DNA of 64,000 bases from Bacilli bacterium (GTDB lineage: Bacteria; Bacillota_I; Bacilli_A; RF39; UBA660). The translations under genes were made by a program, and so were the position numbers. Shown here one piece after another: positions 14,745-25,637 of the stretch. Numbering within the stretch: position 1 is the first letter of the stretch; the number at the start of each line of letters is the position of its first letter. The DNA lies in NCBI GenBank assembly GCA_017528315.1, contig JAFXOW010000010.1:67367-131366 (forward strand). The letters are read 5' to 3'. The notes under the pieces were generated by a model. It was given only the letters and a program-made list of their open reading frames with translations, searched no databases and was not told where the DNA came from.

Positions 14745-16010
14745 ATGGAAAAAAAGAAAAATATAGTTGAGTTAACTGGTGTTATTGCAGGAGACGAGTG
14801 GACAAAAGCAATTCATGATGCGTATGACAAAAATAAAAAAAATATTAAAATGGATGGGTTTCGTCCAGGTAAAGTACCATTTGATATGTTTGTAAAAAGA
14901 AATGGAGTAGAAAGTTTATTTTTAGATGCAGCTGATTTAGTTATTAGTAAAGCTTATATTGAAGCACTTGATGAAGCAAATATAATTCCCGTTGCTGAAC
15001 CAAAAGTTGATATAAAGGAAGTAACTGAAGAGAAAATAGAATTTATTTTTAAAGTGGTAACTAAACCAGAATTAAAGATTAATAAATATAAAGATTTAAA
15101 AGTAAAAAAAGATGAATTAAAAGTTACTGATGAAGAAATTAATCATGAAATAGAACATTTACTAGAACATTATGCTGAACTTGTGATTAAAGATGGCAAA
15201 GTAGAAAAGGGAGATATTGTTATAATTGATTATATTGGAACAGTAGATGGAAAAGAATTTGAGGGAGGAAAAGCTGAAAATTATAGTTTAGTAATTGGAA
15301 GTAATACTTTTATTCCGGGATTTGAAGATCAACTAATTGGAATGGATAAAGAAGAAACTAAAGATATTAAAGTTACATTTCCAGAAGATTATCATGCTGA
15401 TGATTTAAAAGGACGCGATGCTGTATTTAAAGTAACAGTACATGAAATAAAGACTAAAGAAGCAAGAAAATTAGATGAAGAATTTTTTGAAGATTTAGGT
15501 ATGGAAGGTGTTAACTCAGAAGAAACCTTAAAGAAAAGTATTAAAGAACATTTAGAAGGACATAAAAAAACAGATATTGAAAATAAATTCGTTGAAGAAT
15601 TAATGGATAAGATTTCTAAAAATACGGAAGTTGATATTCCAGAAGAAATGGTTGAAGAAGAAATTGATCGTTTAGTTCATCGAGCTGAAGAAAATTTAAA
15701 ATATCAAGGAATTAGTTTAGACTTATATTATCAGTTTACTAAGACAACTAAAGAAGACATGAGAAAACAATTAGAACCGGAAGCATTTAAAAATGTTATG
15801 TATCGTTTAATTTTAGAAGAAGTTATGAAATTAGAAGATATAAAAGTAACAGATGAAGATGTAGAAAATGAAATTAAGAAAATAATGGATGAATTTAAAG
15901 TAACTCGTGAAGATATAGAAAAAGAATATGGAAGTTTAGATAATTTAAAATATGATTTACAAGTTAGAAAAACGTTTGAAAGACTTTCTGAATTAAATGA
16001 GGTTAAGTAA
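14745..16010 (+). CDS. tig: trigger factor
   Basis: 421 aa. Central FKBP-type PPIase domain (…IIDYIGTVDGKEFEGGKAENYSLVIGSNTFIPGFEDQLIGM…). Confidence 0.9.
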   Translation: MEKKKNIVELTGVIAGDEWTKAIHDAYDKNKKNIKMDGFRPGKVPFDMFVKRNGVESLFLDAADLVISKAYIEALDEANIIPVAEPKVDIKEVTEEKIEFIFKVVTKPELKINKYKDLKVKKDELKVTDEEINHEIEHLLEHYAELVIKDGKVEKGDIVIIDYIGTVDGKEFEGGKAENYSLVIGSNTFIPGFEDQLIGMDKEETKDIKVTFPEDYHADDLKGRDAVFKVTVHEIKTKEARKLDEEFFEDLGMEGVNSEETLKKSIKEHLEGHKKTDIENKFVEELMDKISKNTEVDIPEEMVEEEIDRLVHRAEENLKYQGISLDLYYQFTKTTKEDMRKQLEPEAFKNVMYRLILEEVMKLEDIKVTDEDVENEIKKIMDEFKVTREDIEKEYGSLDNLKYDLQVRKTFERLSELNEVK

Positions 16011-16063: not shown

Positions 16064-16744
16064 ATGAGAATGGATCGATATGATGGAGAGGAAATAGATG
16101 TTTCTAAAAAATCAAGAACAGATAAAAATCAAGAATTATATACAGATGTATATCTTAATAATGCATATGTTGATATAAGTGAAATAGAAGAAGCTGTTGA
16201 CGAAGAAAATAAGGAAACTTTAGTAGAAAATGTAGAAATAAAACCAGAAATAGAAGTAGTTCCTCTTGTTTATAATGAAAAAAAATACGATATTAATTCT
16301 TTAATAGAAGAAGCAATAGAAAATAATAATGATAATTTAAAAAGAAGTATTGAACATACAACTGAAATAGATGGTATTATAAAAAGTATTAATGAAGCTC
16401 AAAAAGAAAAGGAACAAAATAGTGATAAGGAGTTACTAGAATTTTTAATGCCAGAAAATGATACCACAACTATTGTTGAACCTTTAGATAACGTTATAGA
16501 TAACACTGAGATGGTTGATACGAGCGTTATTCATAAAGATGAGATGAGTAATGAGATATTAGAAGAAATGACCGAAGAAAATGAACATAAAGAGCCTTTA
16601 GAAGAAAGAGAATCAGAAATGGATGATACTTTTAAAGATGAAACTAAAATTGATAAGAAAAAAATTTTTATAATTGGTGGAGTAATATTAGTAATATTAA
16701 TAATTTTAGGATTTTTAGTTTGGAAGAAAGTTATTAAATTTTAG
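16064..16744 (+). CDS. acidic hypothetical protein with C-terminal TM anchor
   Basis: 226 aa, highly E/D-rich. C-terminal hydrophobic segment IFIIGGVILVILIILGFLVW. Confidence 0.4.
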   Translation: MRMDRYDGEEIDVSKKSRTDKNQELYTDVYLNNAYVDISEIEEAVDEENKETLVENVEIKPEIEVVPLVYNEKKYDINSLIEEAIENNNDNLKRSIEHTTEIDGIIKSINEAQKEKEQNSDKELLEFLMPENDTTTIVEPLDNVIDNTEMVDTSVIHKDEMSNEILEEMTEENEHKEPLEERESEMDDTFKDETKIDKKKIFIIGGVILVILIILGFLVWKKVIKF

Positions 16745-16861
16745 TTTAGGTATAACTATTGATTTTTTAACAATTTATAAAAAAAATAAATAATATCAAT
16801 AAATGTCAATATTATTTATTTTTTTTAATATTTATTTTATTATATCTATAGGAGGTTTGTT

Positions 16862-19264
16862 ATGAAATATGCATTAGTACTTAGAAAAATATTATATAAC
16901 AATATAATTTATTATCAAGCTATAGATAAAGTTATAGGAGAAGAGACTTTTGATAATAGAATAAAAGTAATAGAAGGTGATAAATATTTAGAAAAAGAAT
17001 TGTCTTCTATTGAAGAAAAAGATAATCGATTTGTATATTTAGAAATAGATGAAGAGACTTATAATAATTATAAGATTGAATATTCATTTTATAAAGAAGA
17101 GAATAAGGAAATAGTAAATGTTGAAGATCCAGTTGAATATAATAATATTATATTAGCTTTTCATGATGAATATAACGATTTTAAAATTATTCCTGATTAT
17201 AATATAGAAGAATTAATAAATAATACTAGAGAAGATTTAAATTATTTATTAATGGGACAAATGACACCAATTAATAAGATACTTAATAAAATATATGATA
17301 ATTATATGTACTTCGAATCAGATTTAGCTAGTGAATATATTTATAAATATAAAAGTAATATTATGGTAATTGGAGAACTAGGATGTGGTAAGTCAACAAT
17401 TAAAGATTCTTTAATTAGAAATTTTGCACCCATTCCTGTTATAAGTTTTAAATTGACAGGTGATGTAGGAGAAGATATATCAGAAATTGCTAGAAGACTT
17501 TGGATACTTAGTGATGGTAATAAATTTTTAGCTGAACGAGGAATGGTAATATTTGATACTATAGAATCAATTGGAGATTATGATAACCATGGGGATTTAA
17601 ATACCTATGTTCAAGAATTAGAAGAAATTATTAAAACTCGGGATGTTTATTTAAAAAATAAGAATGGAGAAATATTTAAATTTGATTACTCATTTATAAC
17701 TAATATATTAATGTTAGATATGGATTATGATTTTTCTTCTGAAGTTAAATATGATGATTTATACTATTCTAAAATATATGGAAGTAAATTAATGGAAATG
17801 GGATTTACTCCATCCATGATTAATAATTTATTTGATAATGAGATAATATTTATGAATGAAATGACTAAAGAACTAGCAACTAGTATTTTAAAAAATAAAG
17901 AAATATCACCTTTATATCAATTAAAAAATGTTCTTGAAGAAAGAGGTAAAAAGGTTAGAATTAGTAAAAATTTTGTTTCTAATTTAGTAGATTATGGACT
18001 AGATTATAAAGAAGGTTTTCATGGTATTATTAAAACTCTTAAATATTTACAAAATAAAAAAGATATGTCGTTAAAAGAAATTAAATTTATAGAAGATGAA
18101 GTTTTTGATTTAAAGATAGGAACTGCTAATTTATTTCATGATGAATTATATAATGAGTTTATGGAAACAAATCCTGAAACTAAAACAGAGACTAAATCTA
18201 AAACTGGACTTGATGTTGATATAAAAAATAGAACAATTAATAATTTAAAAATCAGAGATGTAGTAAATATAATAAAGAAAAGAGTATTAGGACAAGATGA
18301 AGCTATTTTTAGTATTGTAAATTCTTTTTATAATCATATTTTTAATCAAAATAGAGGATACACGAAAGAAGATCTTAATGAATTAAAAGAAAATGTTTTA
18401 ATATTTGGTTCAACTGGAGTTGGAAAAACAGCAATAGTTAAAGCATTAGCTAGTATTTTTGATATTACTTATGTTAGAGAAATTGCAACAAGGTATTCTA
18501 AAACTGGATTCGTAGGTCAAGATGTTGATTCTATACTATATGATTTAGTGGATGCTGCTCATGGTGATATAGAAAAAGCGGAGCATGGAATACTTTATAT
18601 TGATGAAATTGATAAAATTAAATCAGGTGGTGGAGGTAATGTTGAAAGTATGGCTGAGGGTGTTCAAGATAACTTATTAACCTTAATAGAAGGTGATGTA
18701 AGAACTATGGAACCATCAGCTGGAAGAGCACCTTTAACATTTGATACATCAAATCTTTGGGTTATAGGAACTGGAGCTTTTGATGGACTTGATGATTGTA
18801 TTAAACAAAGAATTAAACGTGAAAGAGGATTAGGAAAAGTTGGATTTGGTGATAAGGATACAAATTTAAAAGTATTACCAGAACCAACAGATGATGATTT
18901 ACACGAATATGGATTTGATAGACAGTTTTTAAGAAGATTTCCTAATAAAGTGCCACTTCAAAACTTAAATGTTGATGTTTTCTATGATATTATTAATAAT
19001 CCTAATGGAGGTTTTGTAAACTTAATTAAGAAGGGACTAGAAAGTGATGGAATAGTTGTATCTATATCAGAAGAATTTAAGAAAGAATTAGCTAAAAAGG
19101 CAATGGAGAAAAAACAAGGAGCGGCAGGTATTAAAAGTACTTTTATTAAATACAAACAAGAAATAGATAAAAATATTCAAGATGGGGATGTAGAAAAAGT
19201 AATACTAGATAAAACTTGTATCGATAATCTTAAAAATATTACCTATGTAAAGCGTAAAAAATAA
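16862..19264 (+). CDS. clpX: tandem ClpX-like AAA+ unfoldase: degenerate N-terminal ClpX-like module plus canonical C-terminal ClpX module, no zinc-finger domain
   Basis: 800 aa. C-terminal half has ClpX Walker A GSTGVGKT, pore loop GFVGQDV, Walker B GILYIDEIDKI, RKH-like and IGF-like (VGFG) loops. N-terminal half repeats the same architecture in degenerate form (GELGCGKST, GDVGEDI, GMVIFDTIESI). Sits at the clpX position downstream of tig. Confidence 0.7.
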   Translation: MKYALVLRKILYNNIIYYQAIDKVIGEETFDNRIKVIEGDKYLEKELSSIEEKDNRFVYLEIDEETYNNYKIEYSFYKEENKEIVNVEDPVEYNNIILAFHDEYNDFKIIPDYNIEELINNTREDLNYLLMGQMTPINKILNKIYDNYMYFESDLASEYIYKYKSNIMVIGELGCGKSTIKDSLIRNFAPIPVISFKLTGDVGEDISEIARRLWILSDGNKFLAERGMVIFDTIESIGDYDNHGDLNTYVQELEEIIKTRDVYLKNKNGEIFKFDYSFITNILMLDMDYDFSSEVKYDDLYYSKIYGSKLMEMGFTPSMINNLFDNEIIFMNEMTKELATSILKNKEISPLYQLKNVLEERGKKVRISKNFVSNLVDYGLDYKEGFHGIIKTLKYLQNKKDMSLKEIKFIEDEVFDLKIGTANLFHDELYNEFMETNPETKTETKSKTGLDVDIKNRTINNLKIRDVVNIIKKRVLGQDEAIFSIVNSFYNHIFNQNRGYTKEDLNELKENVLIFGSTGVGKTAIVKALASIFDITYVREIATRYSKTGFVGQDVDSILYDLVDAAHGDIEKAEHGILYIDEIDKIKSGGGGNVESMAEGVQDNLLTLIEGDVRTMEPSAGRAPLTFDTSNLWVIGTGAFDGLDDCIKQRIKRERGLGKVGFGDKDTNLKVLPEPTDDDLHEYGFDRQFLRRFPNKVPLQNLNVDVFYDIINNPNGGFVNLIKKGLESDGIVVSISEEFKKELAKKAMEKKQGAAGIKSTFIKYKQEIDKNIQDGDVEKVILDKTCIDNLKNITYVKRKK

Positions 19265-19338: not shown

Positions 19339-20787
19339 GTGATTGAAATGAAGAAAACAGTTTTAATGTTAATAAATGGTTTTGGAGTTGAAAAGAAAAA
19401 TTCTTATCCAATCTATGATGATGATCTTATGCCAACATTTGCAGCCCTTTCACGTAACTATTTGTTTTCTAATAATTCAGTTATATCACATGTTAACAAT
19501 ATTTATGATGCTTACCGAAATATTTCTCTTGATGTAAATGAATTGTATAATTATTCAGTAATAAGTCGTGATATAGCAAGTAAAACATTTGGAAACAAAC
19601 AAATGTTATTAAATTTAAAAAAAGATTATGAAACTAAAAATGGTAATTTACATATTTTTTGTTTAGTAGATACTAGTTTAAAAATAGTAGAACATTTAAA
19701 AGAAACTTTGAAAGTAATTAATCCTAATATGAAAAAAAATGTATTTCTTCATTTAATAATATCATCAAATAGTATTGAAGATTATAAGTATTTAACAGAA
19801 GTATTTAGTAAAATTAATATGGATATGTCTGGATATGGTGAAATAGGATTTATTTTGGGATTAAATTCAATAGCCAATACAGCCAAAGATGTTGATTTAA
19901 ATTTCTTTTTCAAGATGTTTATTTCAAAAGTTGGAGAAAAATGGCAATCATTTACCCAAAAGTTTGATGTTTTATATGCAATGAAAACACCTCCAAGGGA
20001 AACTAAACCTTTTATTGTTAATTCTAATTTTAGTTTAGATATTAATGACACTTTTATGTTCTTTAACTATGATAATATTGATTTAACTAATTTTATAAAT
20101 ACTTTATCTAATATAAAATATGGTGATTCTAAAAATAATTATTCATATTATTCATTGTTTGCTGTTACTAGTAAAATTGCTATACCTTATCTTTATGAAG
20201 TAACTACATCACCTAATAGTTTAGTTAATTCATTAAATGAATTAAAAGCTAAAGCTTTAATGTTTTGTAACTTAGATCAAATAAATATTATAAATTATTT
20301 TTGTAATGGATTAAATAATACTGCAAGTGATACTATAACTTTTATTGATATGAAGAAGATAGAACATGATCCTAATAGTATTTATAATGCAATAAGAGAG
20401 TATGATAAAGATTTAGTAATTATAAATTATAATTTAGATGATTGTAGTACGGTTAGTGAGGTTAAACAAAAACTTAAAGATGCTGATAGTTTATTAAAAA
20501 TATTAGATACTAATAGAAATGGAAGTAAATATACTGTAATAGTTTCTAGTTTATATGGAATGATTAAAACATTAAAAACTGATAAGGATACTATGGGTAC
20601 TGTAATATTTTCAGAGGAATTACCATTTTTATATATAGATGACTTTTTAACGAAAAAGAACTTTTTAATTGCTAGTGGTTCTATTAATGATATAATAAAA
20701 AGTTGTTATAAAAGTTTAGATATGAATAGTAAATATCAATCTTTGGTAGAAAAGAAAAATGGTCTTTATAAATTATTCTTTAAATAG
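19339..20787 (+). CDS. hypothetical protein
   Basis: 482-aa ORF with no recognisable motif. Confidence 0.4.
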   Translation: MIEMKKTVLMLINGFGVEKKNSYPIYDDDLMPTFAALSRNYLFSNNSVISHVNNIYDAYRNISLDVNELYNYSVISRDIASKTFGNKQMLLNLKKDYETKNGNLHIFCLVDTSLKIVEHLKETLKVINPNMKKNVFLHLIISSNSIEDYKYLTEVFSKINMDMSGYGEIGFILGLNSIANTAKDVDLNFFFKMFISKVGEKWQSFTQKFDVLYAMKTPPRETKPFIVNSNFSLDINDTFMFFNYDNIDLTNFINTLSNIKYGDSKNNYSYYSLFAVTSKIAIPYLYEVTTSPNSLVNSLNELKAKALMFCNLDQINIINYFCNGLNNTASDTITFIDMKKIEHDPNSIYNAIREYDKDLVIINYNLDDCSTVSEVKQKLKDADSLLKILDTNRNGSKYTVIVSSLYGMIKTLKTDKDTMGTVIFSEELPFLYIDDFLTKKNFLIASGSINDIIKSCYKSLDMNSKYQSLVEKKNGLYKLFFK

Positions 20788-20795
20788 AGGATTTT

Positions 20796-21503
20796 ATGAA
20801 TAAATTTTTTAGCAATTTAGAAAAAATTGGAACTCTTTATATTCCTGTTTTTTTCTTAGTATTGATTTTAAGTATAATATTAAAAATAGATATATTTTTA
20901 ATAATTAAATTTATTATTAGTTCTTTATCTATAATTGTAGGTGTAAGTTTATATTTAGTAGGATATGATTTAAGTTATCCTAAAATAAGTGATAAAGTAA
21001 GTTTAATATTATTAAAGAAAAAAAATATAATTTATATGTTATTTATATCATTTATTTTATCTTTTGTAATTGTTTTATTTGAACCAGAATTATTAAAAGT
21101 ATCTATTAATAATATAAAATTATTAATATTATTGTCCTTTAGTGTTAGTGTTTTCTTTATATTATCAATTTATAGAATTTTAACTAAAGGAAATTATAAA
21201 TATTATTTAATTATTTCTTATATATTAGTTTTTTTAATTATGATGATAACTGATAATAATATTATTCCTTTTGCTATGGAAAGAAGTGTTTTATCAATGG
21301 GACTTGTAAGTGCACCTTTACTAATAACCATGGGAATGAGTTTATCTAAAAGAAGTAAATATGTTAATGAAGATCATACAAGTTTTGGGATACTGGGATT
21401 ATCTAGTATTGGACCCATGATGATATTTATGATTTTAGGAATATTTTATAAATTTGATTTAAATATTTTTTCTAATATTTCTATAATAAATAATTTAATA
21501 TAA
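20796..21503 (+). CDS. polytopic membrane protein (possibly N-terminal part of a frameshifted gene)
   Basis: 235 aa, multiple TM helices. Frame 0 ends at 21503 while an open frame-2 continuation begins at 21494. Confidence 0.4.
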   Translation: MNKFFSNLEKIGTLYIPVFFLVLILSIILKIDIFLIIKFIISSLSIIVGVSLYLVGYDLSYPKISDKVSLILLKKKNIIYMLFISFILSFVIVLFEPELLKVSINNIKLLILLSFSVSVFFILSIYRILTKGNYKYYLIISYILVFLIMMITDNNIIPFAMERSVLSMGLVSAPLLITMGMSLSKRSKYVNEDHTSFGILGLSSIGPMMIFMILGIFYKFDLNIFSNISIINNLI

Positions 21504-21652: not shown

Positions 21653-22135
21653 ATGATAATTATGTTTATTTTTGGTTTCTTTATTATTCGAGTAGAACCA
21701 TCATTTAATTTTTTAATGAATTATGTAGTTGAAGCAACTAGTGGTGGAATTAAGGAAAAGTTTTTAGAATTTTTCTTAGGAATAGGAGCCAGTATTGCTT
21801 TAGTAATAGCTATTTTTATAGTTAAAAATAATTTAAATATTTTAGAATTTTTACTTCCTAGTTTCTTTTTAGCCGTTGTTTTAGCTTTTTTAACACCTAA
21901 TAAATTTTTAGGAATAGCTATGGATTCATTAGGAGCTGTAGTAGGTACTATTTCTTCGACATTTTTTATTCCATTTTTATGTGGGATAAATAGTAGTGTA
22001 CATACAATAGGACTTTTAGCTTTCATTGGAATAGTACCAGTAATATTTTTAGAAATCGCAGGATTTATTTATGAAAAAGAAGTAATATTACATGATTATA
22101 ATAGTTTAGATGATAGGATTATTGATTATGATTAA
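21653..22135 (+). CDS. polytopic membrane protein (frame open upstream to 21494)
   Basis: 160 aa from ATG. Same frame is open and hydrophobic from 21494 (…IKGLGLVFLGIVLFLIGAY…) with no canonical start, suggesting continuity with 20796-21503 across an A8 tract. Confidence 0.4.
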   Translation: MIIMFIFGFFIIRVEPSFNFLMNYVVEATSGGIKEKFLEFFLGIGASIALVIAIFIVKNNLNILEFLLPSFFLAVVLAFLTPNKFLGIAMDSLGAVVGTISSTFFIPFLCGINSSVHTIGLLAFIGIVPVIFLEIAGFIYEKEVILHDYNSLDDRIIDYD

Positions 22136-24692: not shown

Positions 24693-25637
24693 ATGCTTTT
24701 TCATATATTTAAGTGGTGGATTATGTTAAAAAGAAAATCATTAAATAAAATTTATTTAACAACTTTAGTCTTATTTATTATGTTAGTAACGATTACTTTT
24801 GATTATTTAAAAGCGGATAAAAATAATATTATTTATGAAACAGAATATGTTAGTAATTTAGTAAATACTCATATATATTTATTAAATAAAGATAATTTGT
24901 TAGTTAAAGTTGATCATTTATTAAGAAGTAATACCTTAGAAGAAAATATAGAAGATATAATAAATGAATTATTTGTTACAAATAAAAAATATAATAATTT
25001 AAAAGGACTTATACCAAGTAATACTAAATTAAATAGAATAACAATAGATGATAAAACTGCTAATTTAGATTTTTCTAATGATTTGTTAAAAGTTAATAAA
25101 AATATTGAAGAAAAAGTTATTGAAAGTATTGTTTATAGTTTAATAGAATTAGAGAAAATAGATAATGTTAAAATAACTATTGAAGGGAATCCTTTAACAA
25201 AATTAGAAAAAAATAATAAAAATTTACCAATATTATTAAATGAATCTATTGGTATTAATAAAGATTATACTCTTAATAGTATTAAAGATATCGAAAAAGT
25301 AGTTATTTATTATGTTTTTAATGATAACAAAGATAATTATTATGTTCCAGTTACTAAATATGTAAATAGTCGAGATAGTAAAATTAAAATAATTATTGAT
25401 TCTTTAAAAGGAAATTATTTTTCTAATACTAATTTAATAAGTTATTTAAATAGAAATAGTAATATTGATTTTAAATTAGATACAGATATATTAACCATTA
25501 CTTTTGATAGTTTAAATGAAGATACTTTAGAAAGTGTTACTTATTCTATATCAAATAGTGTTTTTGATTCAGTTGAAAAAATAAATAAGGTTATATTTGA
25601 AGTAAATTCTAAAATAATAGATGTAAAATCAAAATGA
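24693..25637 (+). CDS. membrane-anchored hypothetical protein (GerM-like?)
   Basis: 314 aa, N-terminal TM, N/K-rich extracytoplasmic region. No firm motif. Confidence 0.35.
   Translation: MLFHIFKWWIMLKRKSLNKIYLTTLVLFIMLVTITFDYLKADKNNIIYETEYVSNLVNTHIYLLNKDNLLVKVDHLLRSNTLEENIEDIINELFVTNKKYNNLKGLIPSNTKLNRITIDDKTANLDFSNDLLKVNKNIEEKVIESIVYSLIELEKIDNVKITIEGNPLTKLEKNNKNLPILLNESIGINKDYTLNSIKDIEKVVIYYVFNDNKDNYYVPVTKYVNSRDSKIKIIIDSLKGNYFSNTNLISYLNRNSNIDFKLDTDILTITFDSLNEDTLESVTYSISNSVFDSVEKINKVIFEVNSKIIDVKSK

Follow-up and report, generated by a model that had tools for sequence, protein, structure and literature searches.

ClpX is the reference system for ring-ATPase unfolding, and much of what is known about it was learned from artificial single chains in which live and dead modules are mixed. 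Nucleotide is contacted in ClpX by box II, Walker A, Walker B, the arginine finger (Arg307), and sensor-II (Arg370) (Fei et al. 2020, PMC7112951). The arginine finger and the sensor-I* of a ClpX site come from the clockwise neighbor, the small domain packs on the large domain of the neighboring subunit, and hydrolysis is lost or severely impaired in E185Q, R370K, and R307A variants (PMC7112951). The same paper covers the part that the IGF loop plays in ClpP docking, and the use of single-chain ClpX pseudohexamers is described there and in PMC9035409. Here, we analyzed a gene in a 64,000-nucleotide stretch of contig JAFXOW010000010.1 from a “Bacilli bacterium”; this whole stretch of 64 kb is called the window below, and positions count from its first letter. 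The encoded protein contains, in order, a β-rich N-terminal domain, a ClpX-derived module (N-module), a variable linker, and a second, ClpX-type module (C-module). On balance, though with considerable reserve, we read it as a conserved ClpX-family unfoldase that would have arisen by internal duplication of an AAA+ module and in which a ring of live C-modules would lie beneath a tier of nonhydrolyzing N-modules.

The gene is a single uninterrupted open reading frame (ORF) of 800 aa at 16862 to 19264 on the + strand, stop codon included, as established from the ORF list and the sequence. A strong ribosome-binding site, AGGAGG, could be read at 16850 to 16855 (+), 6 nt 5′ of the ATG at 16862. The G+C content of the window is 20 to 33%. 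An identical protein is present in GenBank as MBR3660653.1, labeled “MAG: AAA family ATPase [Bacilli bacterium]” (MAG, metagenome-assembled genome), and two relatives carry the same label.

An earlier note on this DNA, made from the sequence alone, had proposed that two successive ClpX-like modules are joined in one chain, and all of the motifs that it quoted (GELGCGKST, GDVGEDI, GMVIFDTIESI, GSTGVGKT, GFVGQDV, GILYIDEIDKI, and VGFG) are found in the translation. Comparisons with NCBIfam, with the PDB, by tblastn, and by hhalign all support this assignment for both halves. When each half was aligned to ClpX profiles, the C-half (residues 448 to 797) covered positions 57 to 409 of the 418 in the NCBIfam ClpX model NF003745 with an E value of 3.4e-70. 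The N-half alone (residues 1 to 447) had significant NCBIfam matches only to ClpX (NF003745, E 9.2e-12; TIGR00382, E 5.8e-8), which excludes a lack of ClpX similarity in this half; there was also one marginal match to ClpB, in the D2 small domain (E 0.028). In the PDB, the best matches of the N-half were ClpX chains (E 6e-8), with HslU at an E value of 0.4. A tblastn search with E. coli ClpX aligned the query to both halves (E 5e-45 and E 3.6e-8), the weaker alignment being that of the N-half with ClpX residues 71 to 346. Profiles of the N- and C-modules built from 38 relatives matched each other in hhalign with a probability of 99.6% and an E value of 7.9e-25, and the two modules of the tandem protein are approximately 25% identical to each other.

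An AlphaFold2 (AF2) model of the monomer had a mean predicted local distance difference test score (pLDDT) of 83.4 and a predicted template modeling score (pTM) of 0.52. Foldseek comparison of this model with the PDB returned ClpX chains as the best matches (E down to 2.8e-23; template modeling score, 0.74 to 0.86 normalized to the target). The C-module aligns with the ClpX AAA+ module over its whole length at approximately 30 to 34% identity. Matches of the full protein to ClpA and ClpB models were weak (E 2e-14 or worse) and were confined to the D2 region of those models, reached through the C-module, and no Clp_N domain was hit in the protein. Pfam zf-C4_ClpX (PF06689) likewise gave no hit, and residues 1 to 112 contain no Cys, so the zinc-binding domain is absent, as had been proposed. 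The whole protein scored below the curated ClpX cutoffs (237 bits versus 359 for NF003745 and 209.8 versus 370.75 for TIGR00382).

The fusion is common to the orthologs, a point that the earlier note had asked to be checked. A protein search recovered 40 proteins, nearly all of 788 to 818 aa, with 39 to 69% identity and 99 to 100% query coverage, and approximately 40 full-length relatives thus share the architecture down to 39% identity. The assemblies that encode the full-length homologs are from ENA, Logan, JGI, and NCBI and represent uncultured gut “Bacilli bacterium”. These data bear on the possibility that assembly or sequencing error joined two adjacent genes, to which we assign next to no probability. 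The exact protein sequence occurs on 5 contigs. The intermodule linker was searched for a stop codon, a ribosome-binding site, and a start context, an internal stop or ribosome-binding site having been named as the sign of such an artifact; none was found, the frame is open throughout, and the fusion stands. An artifact is ruled out, because homologs with as little as 39% identity show the same architecture at full length in dozens of assemblies and samples that are independent of one another. Two further searches looked for the family in nucleotide data. A profile search of genome contigs, made with the full-length alignment and the pattern GI[LIV]x[IL]DE[IFL]DK, listed 80 loci, all of them ordinary clpX, and a search of metagenome contigs with the N-half alignment yielded one locus only, from a human gut metagenome.

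Among the relatives, the mean pairwise identity was 45 to 50% in the N-module and 49 to 51% in the C-module, and it fell to 17% in the linker. Because the N-module is conserved nearly as well as the C-module and far better than the linker, it is, to judge from its sequence, a maintained pseudo-ATPase under purifying selection and not a decaying remnant. We then took a census of functional motifs in 38 sequences, with positions mapped on E. coli ClpX numbering; all counts out of 38 refer to this set. The parts of the protein in the window are as follows.

16862 to 17197, + strand: N-terminal β-rich domain (residues 1 to 112), in place of the ClpX zinc finger (AF2 model, alignments).
17198 to 18133, + strand: N-module (residues 113 to 424), a ClpX-derived putative pseudo-ATPase with large and small AAA+ domains (NCBIfam, PDB, hhalign).
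17372 to 17395, + strand: Walker A of the N-module, GELGCGKS (residues 171 to 178); GxxGxGK[ST] in 38/38.
17543 to 17560, + strand: degenerate Walker B of the N-module, MVIFDT (residues 228 to 233); T here at the Glu position.
18134 to 18202, + strand: intermodule linker, variable and disordered (residues 425 to 447; pLDDT, identity, alignment).
18203 to 19261, + strand: C-module (residues 448 to 800), a ClpX AAA+ module predicted to be catalytically equipped (NCBIfam, Foldseek).
18407 to 18430, + strand: Walker A of the C-module, GSTGVGKT (residues 516 to 523); G519, G521, K522, and T523 invariant.
18506 to 18517, + strand: pore-1 loop of the C-module, GFVG (residues 549 to 552); at the Y153 position, 20 of the 38 have Y, 11 have I, and 7 have F.
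18590 to 18607, + strand: Walker B of the C-module, ILYIDE (residues 577 to 582); D581 and E582 invariant (38/38).
18839 to 18847, + strand: IGF-type, putative ClpP-docking tripeptide VGF (residues 660 to 662); [VLIMA]-G-F.
18935 to 18937, + strand: arginine finger of the C-module, R692 (E. coli R307); R in 38/38.
19124 to 19126, + strand: sensor-II position (E. coli R370), codon GCA, Ala755; A here only.

By this census, the N-module keeps the residues that bind nucleotide but appears to have lost all those on which hydrolysis or work depends. Besides Walker A, it retains the GQ of box II and the Walker B Asp (D184, 38/38). The catalytic Glu of Walker B (E185) is present in none of the 38 sequences and is replaced by G, S, L, D, N, or T. 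The arginine finger is equally absent (0/38), its column holding D in 20 sequences, N in 6, T in 5, S in 3, E in 2, and G in 1, and so are the sensor-II Arg (R370, 0/38) and the aromatic residue of pore-1 (Y153, 0/38), which is replaced by D, N, or S. The segment bearing the IGF loop is deleted in 38/38, the sensor-I* position (E303) is variable, and there is no RKH motif. The first module had been described as degenerate through loss of the Walker B acidic pair; the Glu is indeed gone, though the Asp is not, and the degeneration extends further than was claimed, since the finger, sensor-II, the pore-1 aromatic, and the IGF loop are also absent throughout. Given the roles assigned to these elements by Fei et al. 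(2020), the retention of box II, Walker A, and the Walker B Asp together with the loss of the catalytic residues suggests that the N-module binds ATP without hydrolyzing it. Its small domain is well conserved, with 50% identity.

The C-module presents the opposite picture. Walker A, the Walker B Asp, and the GQ of box II are kept (the first two in 38/38), and the G-F of the IGF-type loop is likewise present in 38/38, preceded by V, L, I, M, or A and embedded in a loop that is otherwise variable, in agreement with the proposal that the second module carries such a loop. The segment immediately before the module, VDxxKRTIN (residues 448 to 462), is conserved at 59% mean identity, and the module proper spans residues 463 to 800. 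The label “canonical” given to this module holds for Walker A and B, pore-1, the IGF-type loop, and the finger but not for its score, which is below the cutoff, or for three other features. The RKH-like region that had been reported is absent, its positions being gapped in 37/38 C-modules with no RKH motif; sensor-I* (E303) is Gln in 38/38; and the sensor-II Arg, present in 37/38, is missing in the protein of the window alone.

The N-terminal domain is β-rich with a helix at its end, and AF2 modeling of residues 1 to 114 alone gave a pLDDT of 91.7 and a pTM of 0.82. M1, R8, Y17, Q19, K23, D106, and F107 are invariant in the family alignments. The domain matched no Pfam family, and Foldseek found no significant match to it in the PDB (best E, approximately 1). 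An N-terminal β-hairpin signature resembling it, hhhh[RK]K..h....Y[YF], opens more distant tandem proteins, and looser versions of this signature stand at the start of sister ClpX-like families. The linker has a pLDDT of <50 over residues 425 to 446, and the region that contains it (residues 418 to 452) varies in length from 25 to 46 aa across relatives.

A wider set of related proteins was found by searching the N-half profile against 1.84 billion cluster representatives, which returned 36 proteins at an E value of ≤1e-30. The core family, with proteins of approximately 800 aa, accounts for approximately nine clusters. Tandem proteins of 720 to 790 aa at a greater distance share its N-terminal signature, and their first module has degenerated still further, with GxxGxGK[NK] as Walker A and “RDN” in place of “DE”. 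The search also recovered single-module, zinc-finger-less ClpX-like proteins of approximately 470 aa with an IGF-type loop, as well as proteins of approximately 400 aa that resemble the N-half alone. The N-profile scored the live modules of the clade (E 2e-47 to 1e-31) above most other hits. This ranking among the hits of the search suggests that the duplication may have happened within the clade.

Other proteins carry two complete ClpX modules per chain. P0199 (925 aa), P0202 (920 aa; “AAA family ATPase [Bacilli bacterium]” at NCBI), and P0200 represent a separate family of this kind, approximately 920 to 925 aa long and from “Bacilli bacterium” MAGs, and P0199 lies in a 90%-identity cluster of 214 sequences. 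In P0199 and P0202, each module has GPTGCGK[TS], FDEID, an [IM]GF loop, an ELVGR finger, and GARSL at sensor-II; the two modules of one protein are 52 to 54% identical, and orthologous modules are 64 to 66% identical. From their motifs, these three proteins look like natural covalent ClpX dimers. P0077, P0083, and P0095 combine an N-terminal hydrophobic segment with two live ClpX-like modules that have no IGF loops, the motif survey likewise found two live modules without IGF loops in P0128, and P0066 (1238 aa) contains three ClpX-like modules.

The distribution of arginine fingers bears on how the tandem chains might assemble. In the arrangement we favor, with live C-modules below and dead N-modules above, six chains would assemble so that their six C-modules form an ordinary ClpX ring. 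This ring would hydrolyze ATP, pull substrate through its pore, and dock to ClpP, with six [VLIM]GF loops as the contacts. Above it, the N-modules of all six chains would form a second tier, with ATP bound but not hydrolyzed, and would hold the assembly together. This tier would also present the N-terminal domains for recognition of substrates or adaptors, replacing the missing zinc finger. In functional terms, the complex would be a two-tier machine like ClpA or ClpC in which both tiers are built of ClpX modules and the D1-like one acts as NSF-D2 does. The finger is lost from the N-module and invariant in the C-module, and neighbor pairs of N with N and C with C fit this pattern better than alternation does. 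The same pattern, lost in N and kept in C, was seen in approximately 20 more distant proteins with a dead and a live module, where the alignment of the N-module near the finger is less certain. Rings of like with like are thus the likely arrangement, judging from the finger pattern.

The earlier note had instead imagined a trimer of tandem subunits with alternating dead and active sites. In such a model, three chains would form a single planar ring of six modules, dead N-modules alternating with live C-modules, and only three IGF loops would face ClpP. Such a ring has several attractions. No evolutionary route is simpler than the fusion of two ring-subunit copies, a linker region of 25 to 46 aa is long enough, and the N-module retains its nucleotide-binding residues and a well-conserved small domain. 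For the sister family of P0199 and P0202, with two complete modules each bearing an IGF loop, a planar covalent dimer is the easiest reading. Engineered linked ClpX has linkers of roughly 20 residues, and hexamers of this type tolerate inactive subunits. However, every live site would face a finger-less dead module: the C-sites would be completed by N-modules without a finger (0/38) or a conserved sensor-I*, and R307A severely inhibits the ATPase of ClpX (PMC7112951). The N-sites, for their part, lack the catalytic Glu and sensor-II, so that all six sites would be crippled, yet the catalytic residues of the C-module are invariant. In an alternating ring, moreover, the N-module finger should remain under selection and the C-module finger, serving dead sites only, would be free to decay; the opposite was observed. 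Three IGF loops would also bind ClpP weakly, as the loss of even one loop reportedly lowers ClpP affinity strongly. We therefore regard the planar trimer as quite unlikely. Were it correct, it would be nature's own counterpart of the mixed pseudohexamers engineered from ClpX, with permanently nucleotide-bound dead modules, and, since it would work despite finger-less neighbors, it would imply a different rule for the activation of ClpX sites.

Alternatively, the C-modules might form the ClpX hexamer while the N-modules take part in no ring at all, serving as large peripheral appendages, for nucleotide-sensing regulation or adaptor docking, that together with the N-terminal domain replace the zinc finger. 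Loss of the finger is equally expected if N-modules have no AAA+ neighbors, the long disordered linker would give such appendages freedom, and the pore-1 of the N-module, without its conserved aromatic residue, need not line a channel. Strict conservation of Walker A and the Walker B Asp and a small domain with 50% identity, which in ClpX is the part that packs on the next subunit (PMC7112951), are, in contrast, more than an appendage seems to need. We consider this possibility unlikely but the most credible of the alternatives.

The stacked arrangement of a live and a nonhydrolyzing tier must itself be weighed against several observations. With a pTM of 0.52, the AF2 monomer leaves the relative placement of the two modules undefined, and the stacking is deduced from the finger pattern. 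The linker region (residues 418 to 452), at 25 to 46 aa, would be long enough for modules lying side by side as well, as in engineered linked ClpX. Planar tandem rings are plausible in this clade, since the family with two complete modules is probably arranged side by side. Ala755 at sensor-II in the protein of the window would, by E. coli standards, cripple hydrolysis. Several of the distant tandem relatives also lack the sensor-II Arg, some having Ser or Thr there, so sensor-II may be dispensable or its loss tolerated in this clade; alternatively, the enzyme may be a slow ATPase. Finally, no clpP gene was found near the tandem gene. Neither clpP nor a second clpX was detected when the ClpP of B. 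subtilis and the ClpX of E. coli were used as tblastn queries against the 64-kb window and the loci of eight relatives, where the ClpX query aligned only with the two halves of the gene itself, and the CLP_protease domain was absent from the neighbor lists of four relatives.

The absence of clpP from the window and from the flanks of the relatives would also be expected if the protein were a ClpP-independent unfoldase or remodeling chaperone whose VGF loop has another role. In keeping with this, its score lies below the ClpX equivalog cutoff, and tandem ClpX-like proteins without IGF loops do exist (P0077, P0083, and P0095). Yet clpP is commonly unlinked to clpX in Bacillota, and its absence nearby says little. 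The invariance of G-F in 38/38 C-modules, at the exact IGF position of a loop that varies elsewhere, argues for a ClpP partner, and independence from ClpP seems to us very improbable.

Three further features surround the tandem gene and were compared with the corresponding regions of relatives.

14745 to 16010, + strand: trigger factor gene, upstream of the tandem gene (Pfam Trigger_N, FKBP_C, and Trigger_C).
16064 to 16744: 226-aa protein, very acidic, with a C-terminal transmembrane helix and of no known family, between the trigger factor gene and the tandem ClpX gene.
19339 to 20787: 482-aa protein, directly downstream of the tandem gene, with a faint iPGM_N match (E 7e-4) below the cutoff.

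The gene had been described as occupying a conserved tig-clpX position. A tig gene is indeed nearby, but the gene for the 226-aa protein intervenes. Because the upstream genes vary among relatives, linkage to tig is not a feature of the family. Downstream, iPGM-like (approximately 480 aa) and DUF1538 genes follow the tandem gene in several relatives. In the window, the iPGM-like gene lies directly 3′ of it, a position conserved in relatives L001, L083, and L086, and is followed by genes for DUF1538 and a P-II-like protein. In the window, the DUF1538 membrane protein is represented by two ORFs, at 20796 to 21503 and 21653 to 22135 (235 and 160 aa, separated by a 150-nt gap), and in relatives L001 and L086 it is a single gene of 466 to 489 aa. 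The two-ORF form could reflect a pseudogene, a frameshift, or a gene that is truly split. Other genes of the window are ordinary chromosomal ones, including those for PNPase, GlmM, an arginase-family protein, MurE, Der, and SecY. A scan for promoters and terminators was uninformative in this AT-rich DNA, finding 37 promoter-like sites where 31 were expected and no terminator. PADLOC gave no defense-family membership; its matches, at the level of the P-loop, were weak (best E 1.3e-5), and no stretch exceeded the threshold alone.

Sporulation-related domains (SpoVS, CotZ, Cse60, and Germane) occur on contigs of relatives and in the window (L087, 16442 to 17716; L086, 2573 to 2743; window, 24693 to 25637). 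Together with the presence of MurE, they suggest that the organisms behind these very AT-rich “Bacilli bacterium” MAGs are walled and possibly spore forming rather than mycoplasma-like. A group II intron reverse transcriptase is encoded on the contig of one relative.

No account of a natural tandem or duplicated ClpX turned up in a search of full-text literature, with most subscription papers outside its coverage, and the dead-live arrangement has so far been known only from protein engineering. That a dead and a live module are joined in one conserved, natural ClpX chain shows that evolution has explored the same design space, and the family could be used to test which contacts between subunits are truly required in a ClpX ring. 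If the chains do stack in two tiers, they would represent an independent origin of ClpA/ClpC-type architecture from two copies of one module and a clean example of a pseudoenzyme kept for nucleotide-dependent assembly. The family and its sister forms, which have two live modules, three modules, or a long N-terminal region with one module, are at present labeled only “AAA family ATPase” and are therefore missed when proteolysis in gut Bacilli is inventoried from genomes.

Among described systems, canonical ClpX (NF003745/TIGR00382; E. coli structures 6PO1 and 6WRF, among others) shares with the C-module Walker A and B, a G[YF]VG-type pore-1, an IGF-type loop, and an arginine finger. Sensor-II is shared across the tandem family, and the N-module, too, is closer to ClpX than to any other family. 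The tandem protein differs from canonical ClpX in having two modules per chain, the first dead, with a new N-terminal domain and neither the C4 zinc finger nor RKH; it has Gln in place of Glu at sensor-I*, and its score is under the curated cutoff. The engineered single-chain ClpX proteins of the Sauer and Baker laboratories (linked dimers, trimers, and hexamers) likewise join zinc-finger-less modules head to tail through a flexible linker and place dead beside live. Their dead subunits were made by a single point mutation (E185Q or R370K) and keep the arginine finger, pore loops, and IGF loop, whereas the natural dead module has lost its finger, pore-1 aromatic, and IGF loop. It probably cannot replace a ring subunit beside a live site.

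ClpA and ClpC have the same layout as that proposed here, with two AAA+ modules per chain, a ClpP loop on the second only, and an N-terminal domain for substrates or adaptors. ClpB is similar to them but does not bind ClpP. Their D1 belongs to an AAA+ clade other than that of D2, is catalytically active, and has pore loops, and the Clp_N domain is present. In the tandem protein, by contrast, both modules are ClpX derived, the first is dead, and there is no Clp_N, so that the likeness is one of layout and not of ancestry. NSF-D2 has the traits proposed for the N-module, namely, an intact Walker A, ATP that is bound and not hydrolyzed, and a part in oligomer stability, the role in assembly being a proposal in the case of the tandem protein. 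It belongs to an unrelated AAA+ clade and lies below the active ring, whereas the proposed tier of N-modules would lie above it. P0199 and P0202 share with the tandem protein a broad group, the ClpX-like proteins of uncultured Bacilli that have no zinc finger, and in their chains, too, two ClpX modules come after an N-terminal region. Both of their modules are live (Walker B DE, IGF, finger, and sensor-II) and are 52 to 54% identical, compared with approximately 25% in the tandem family; the dead-live family and the P0199/P0202 family are probably the products of independent duplications.

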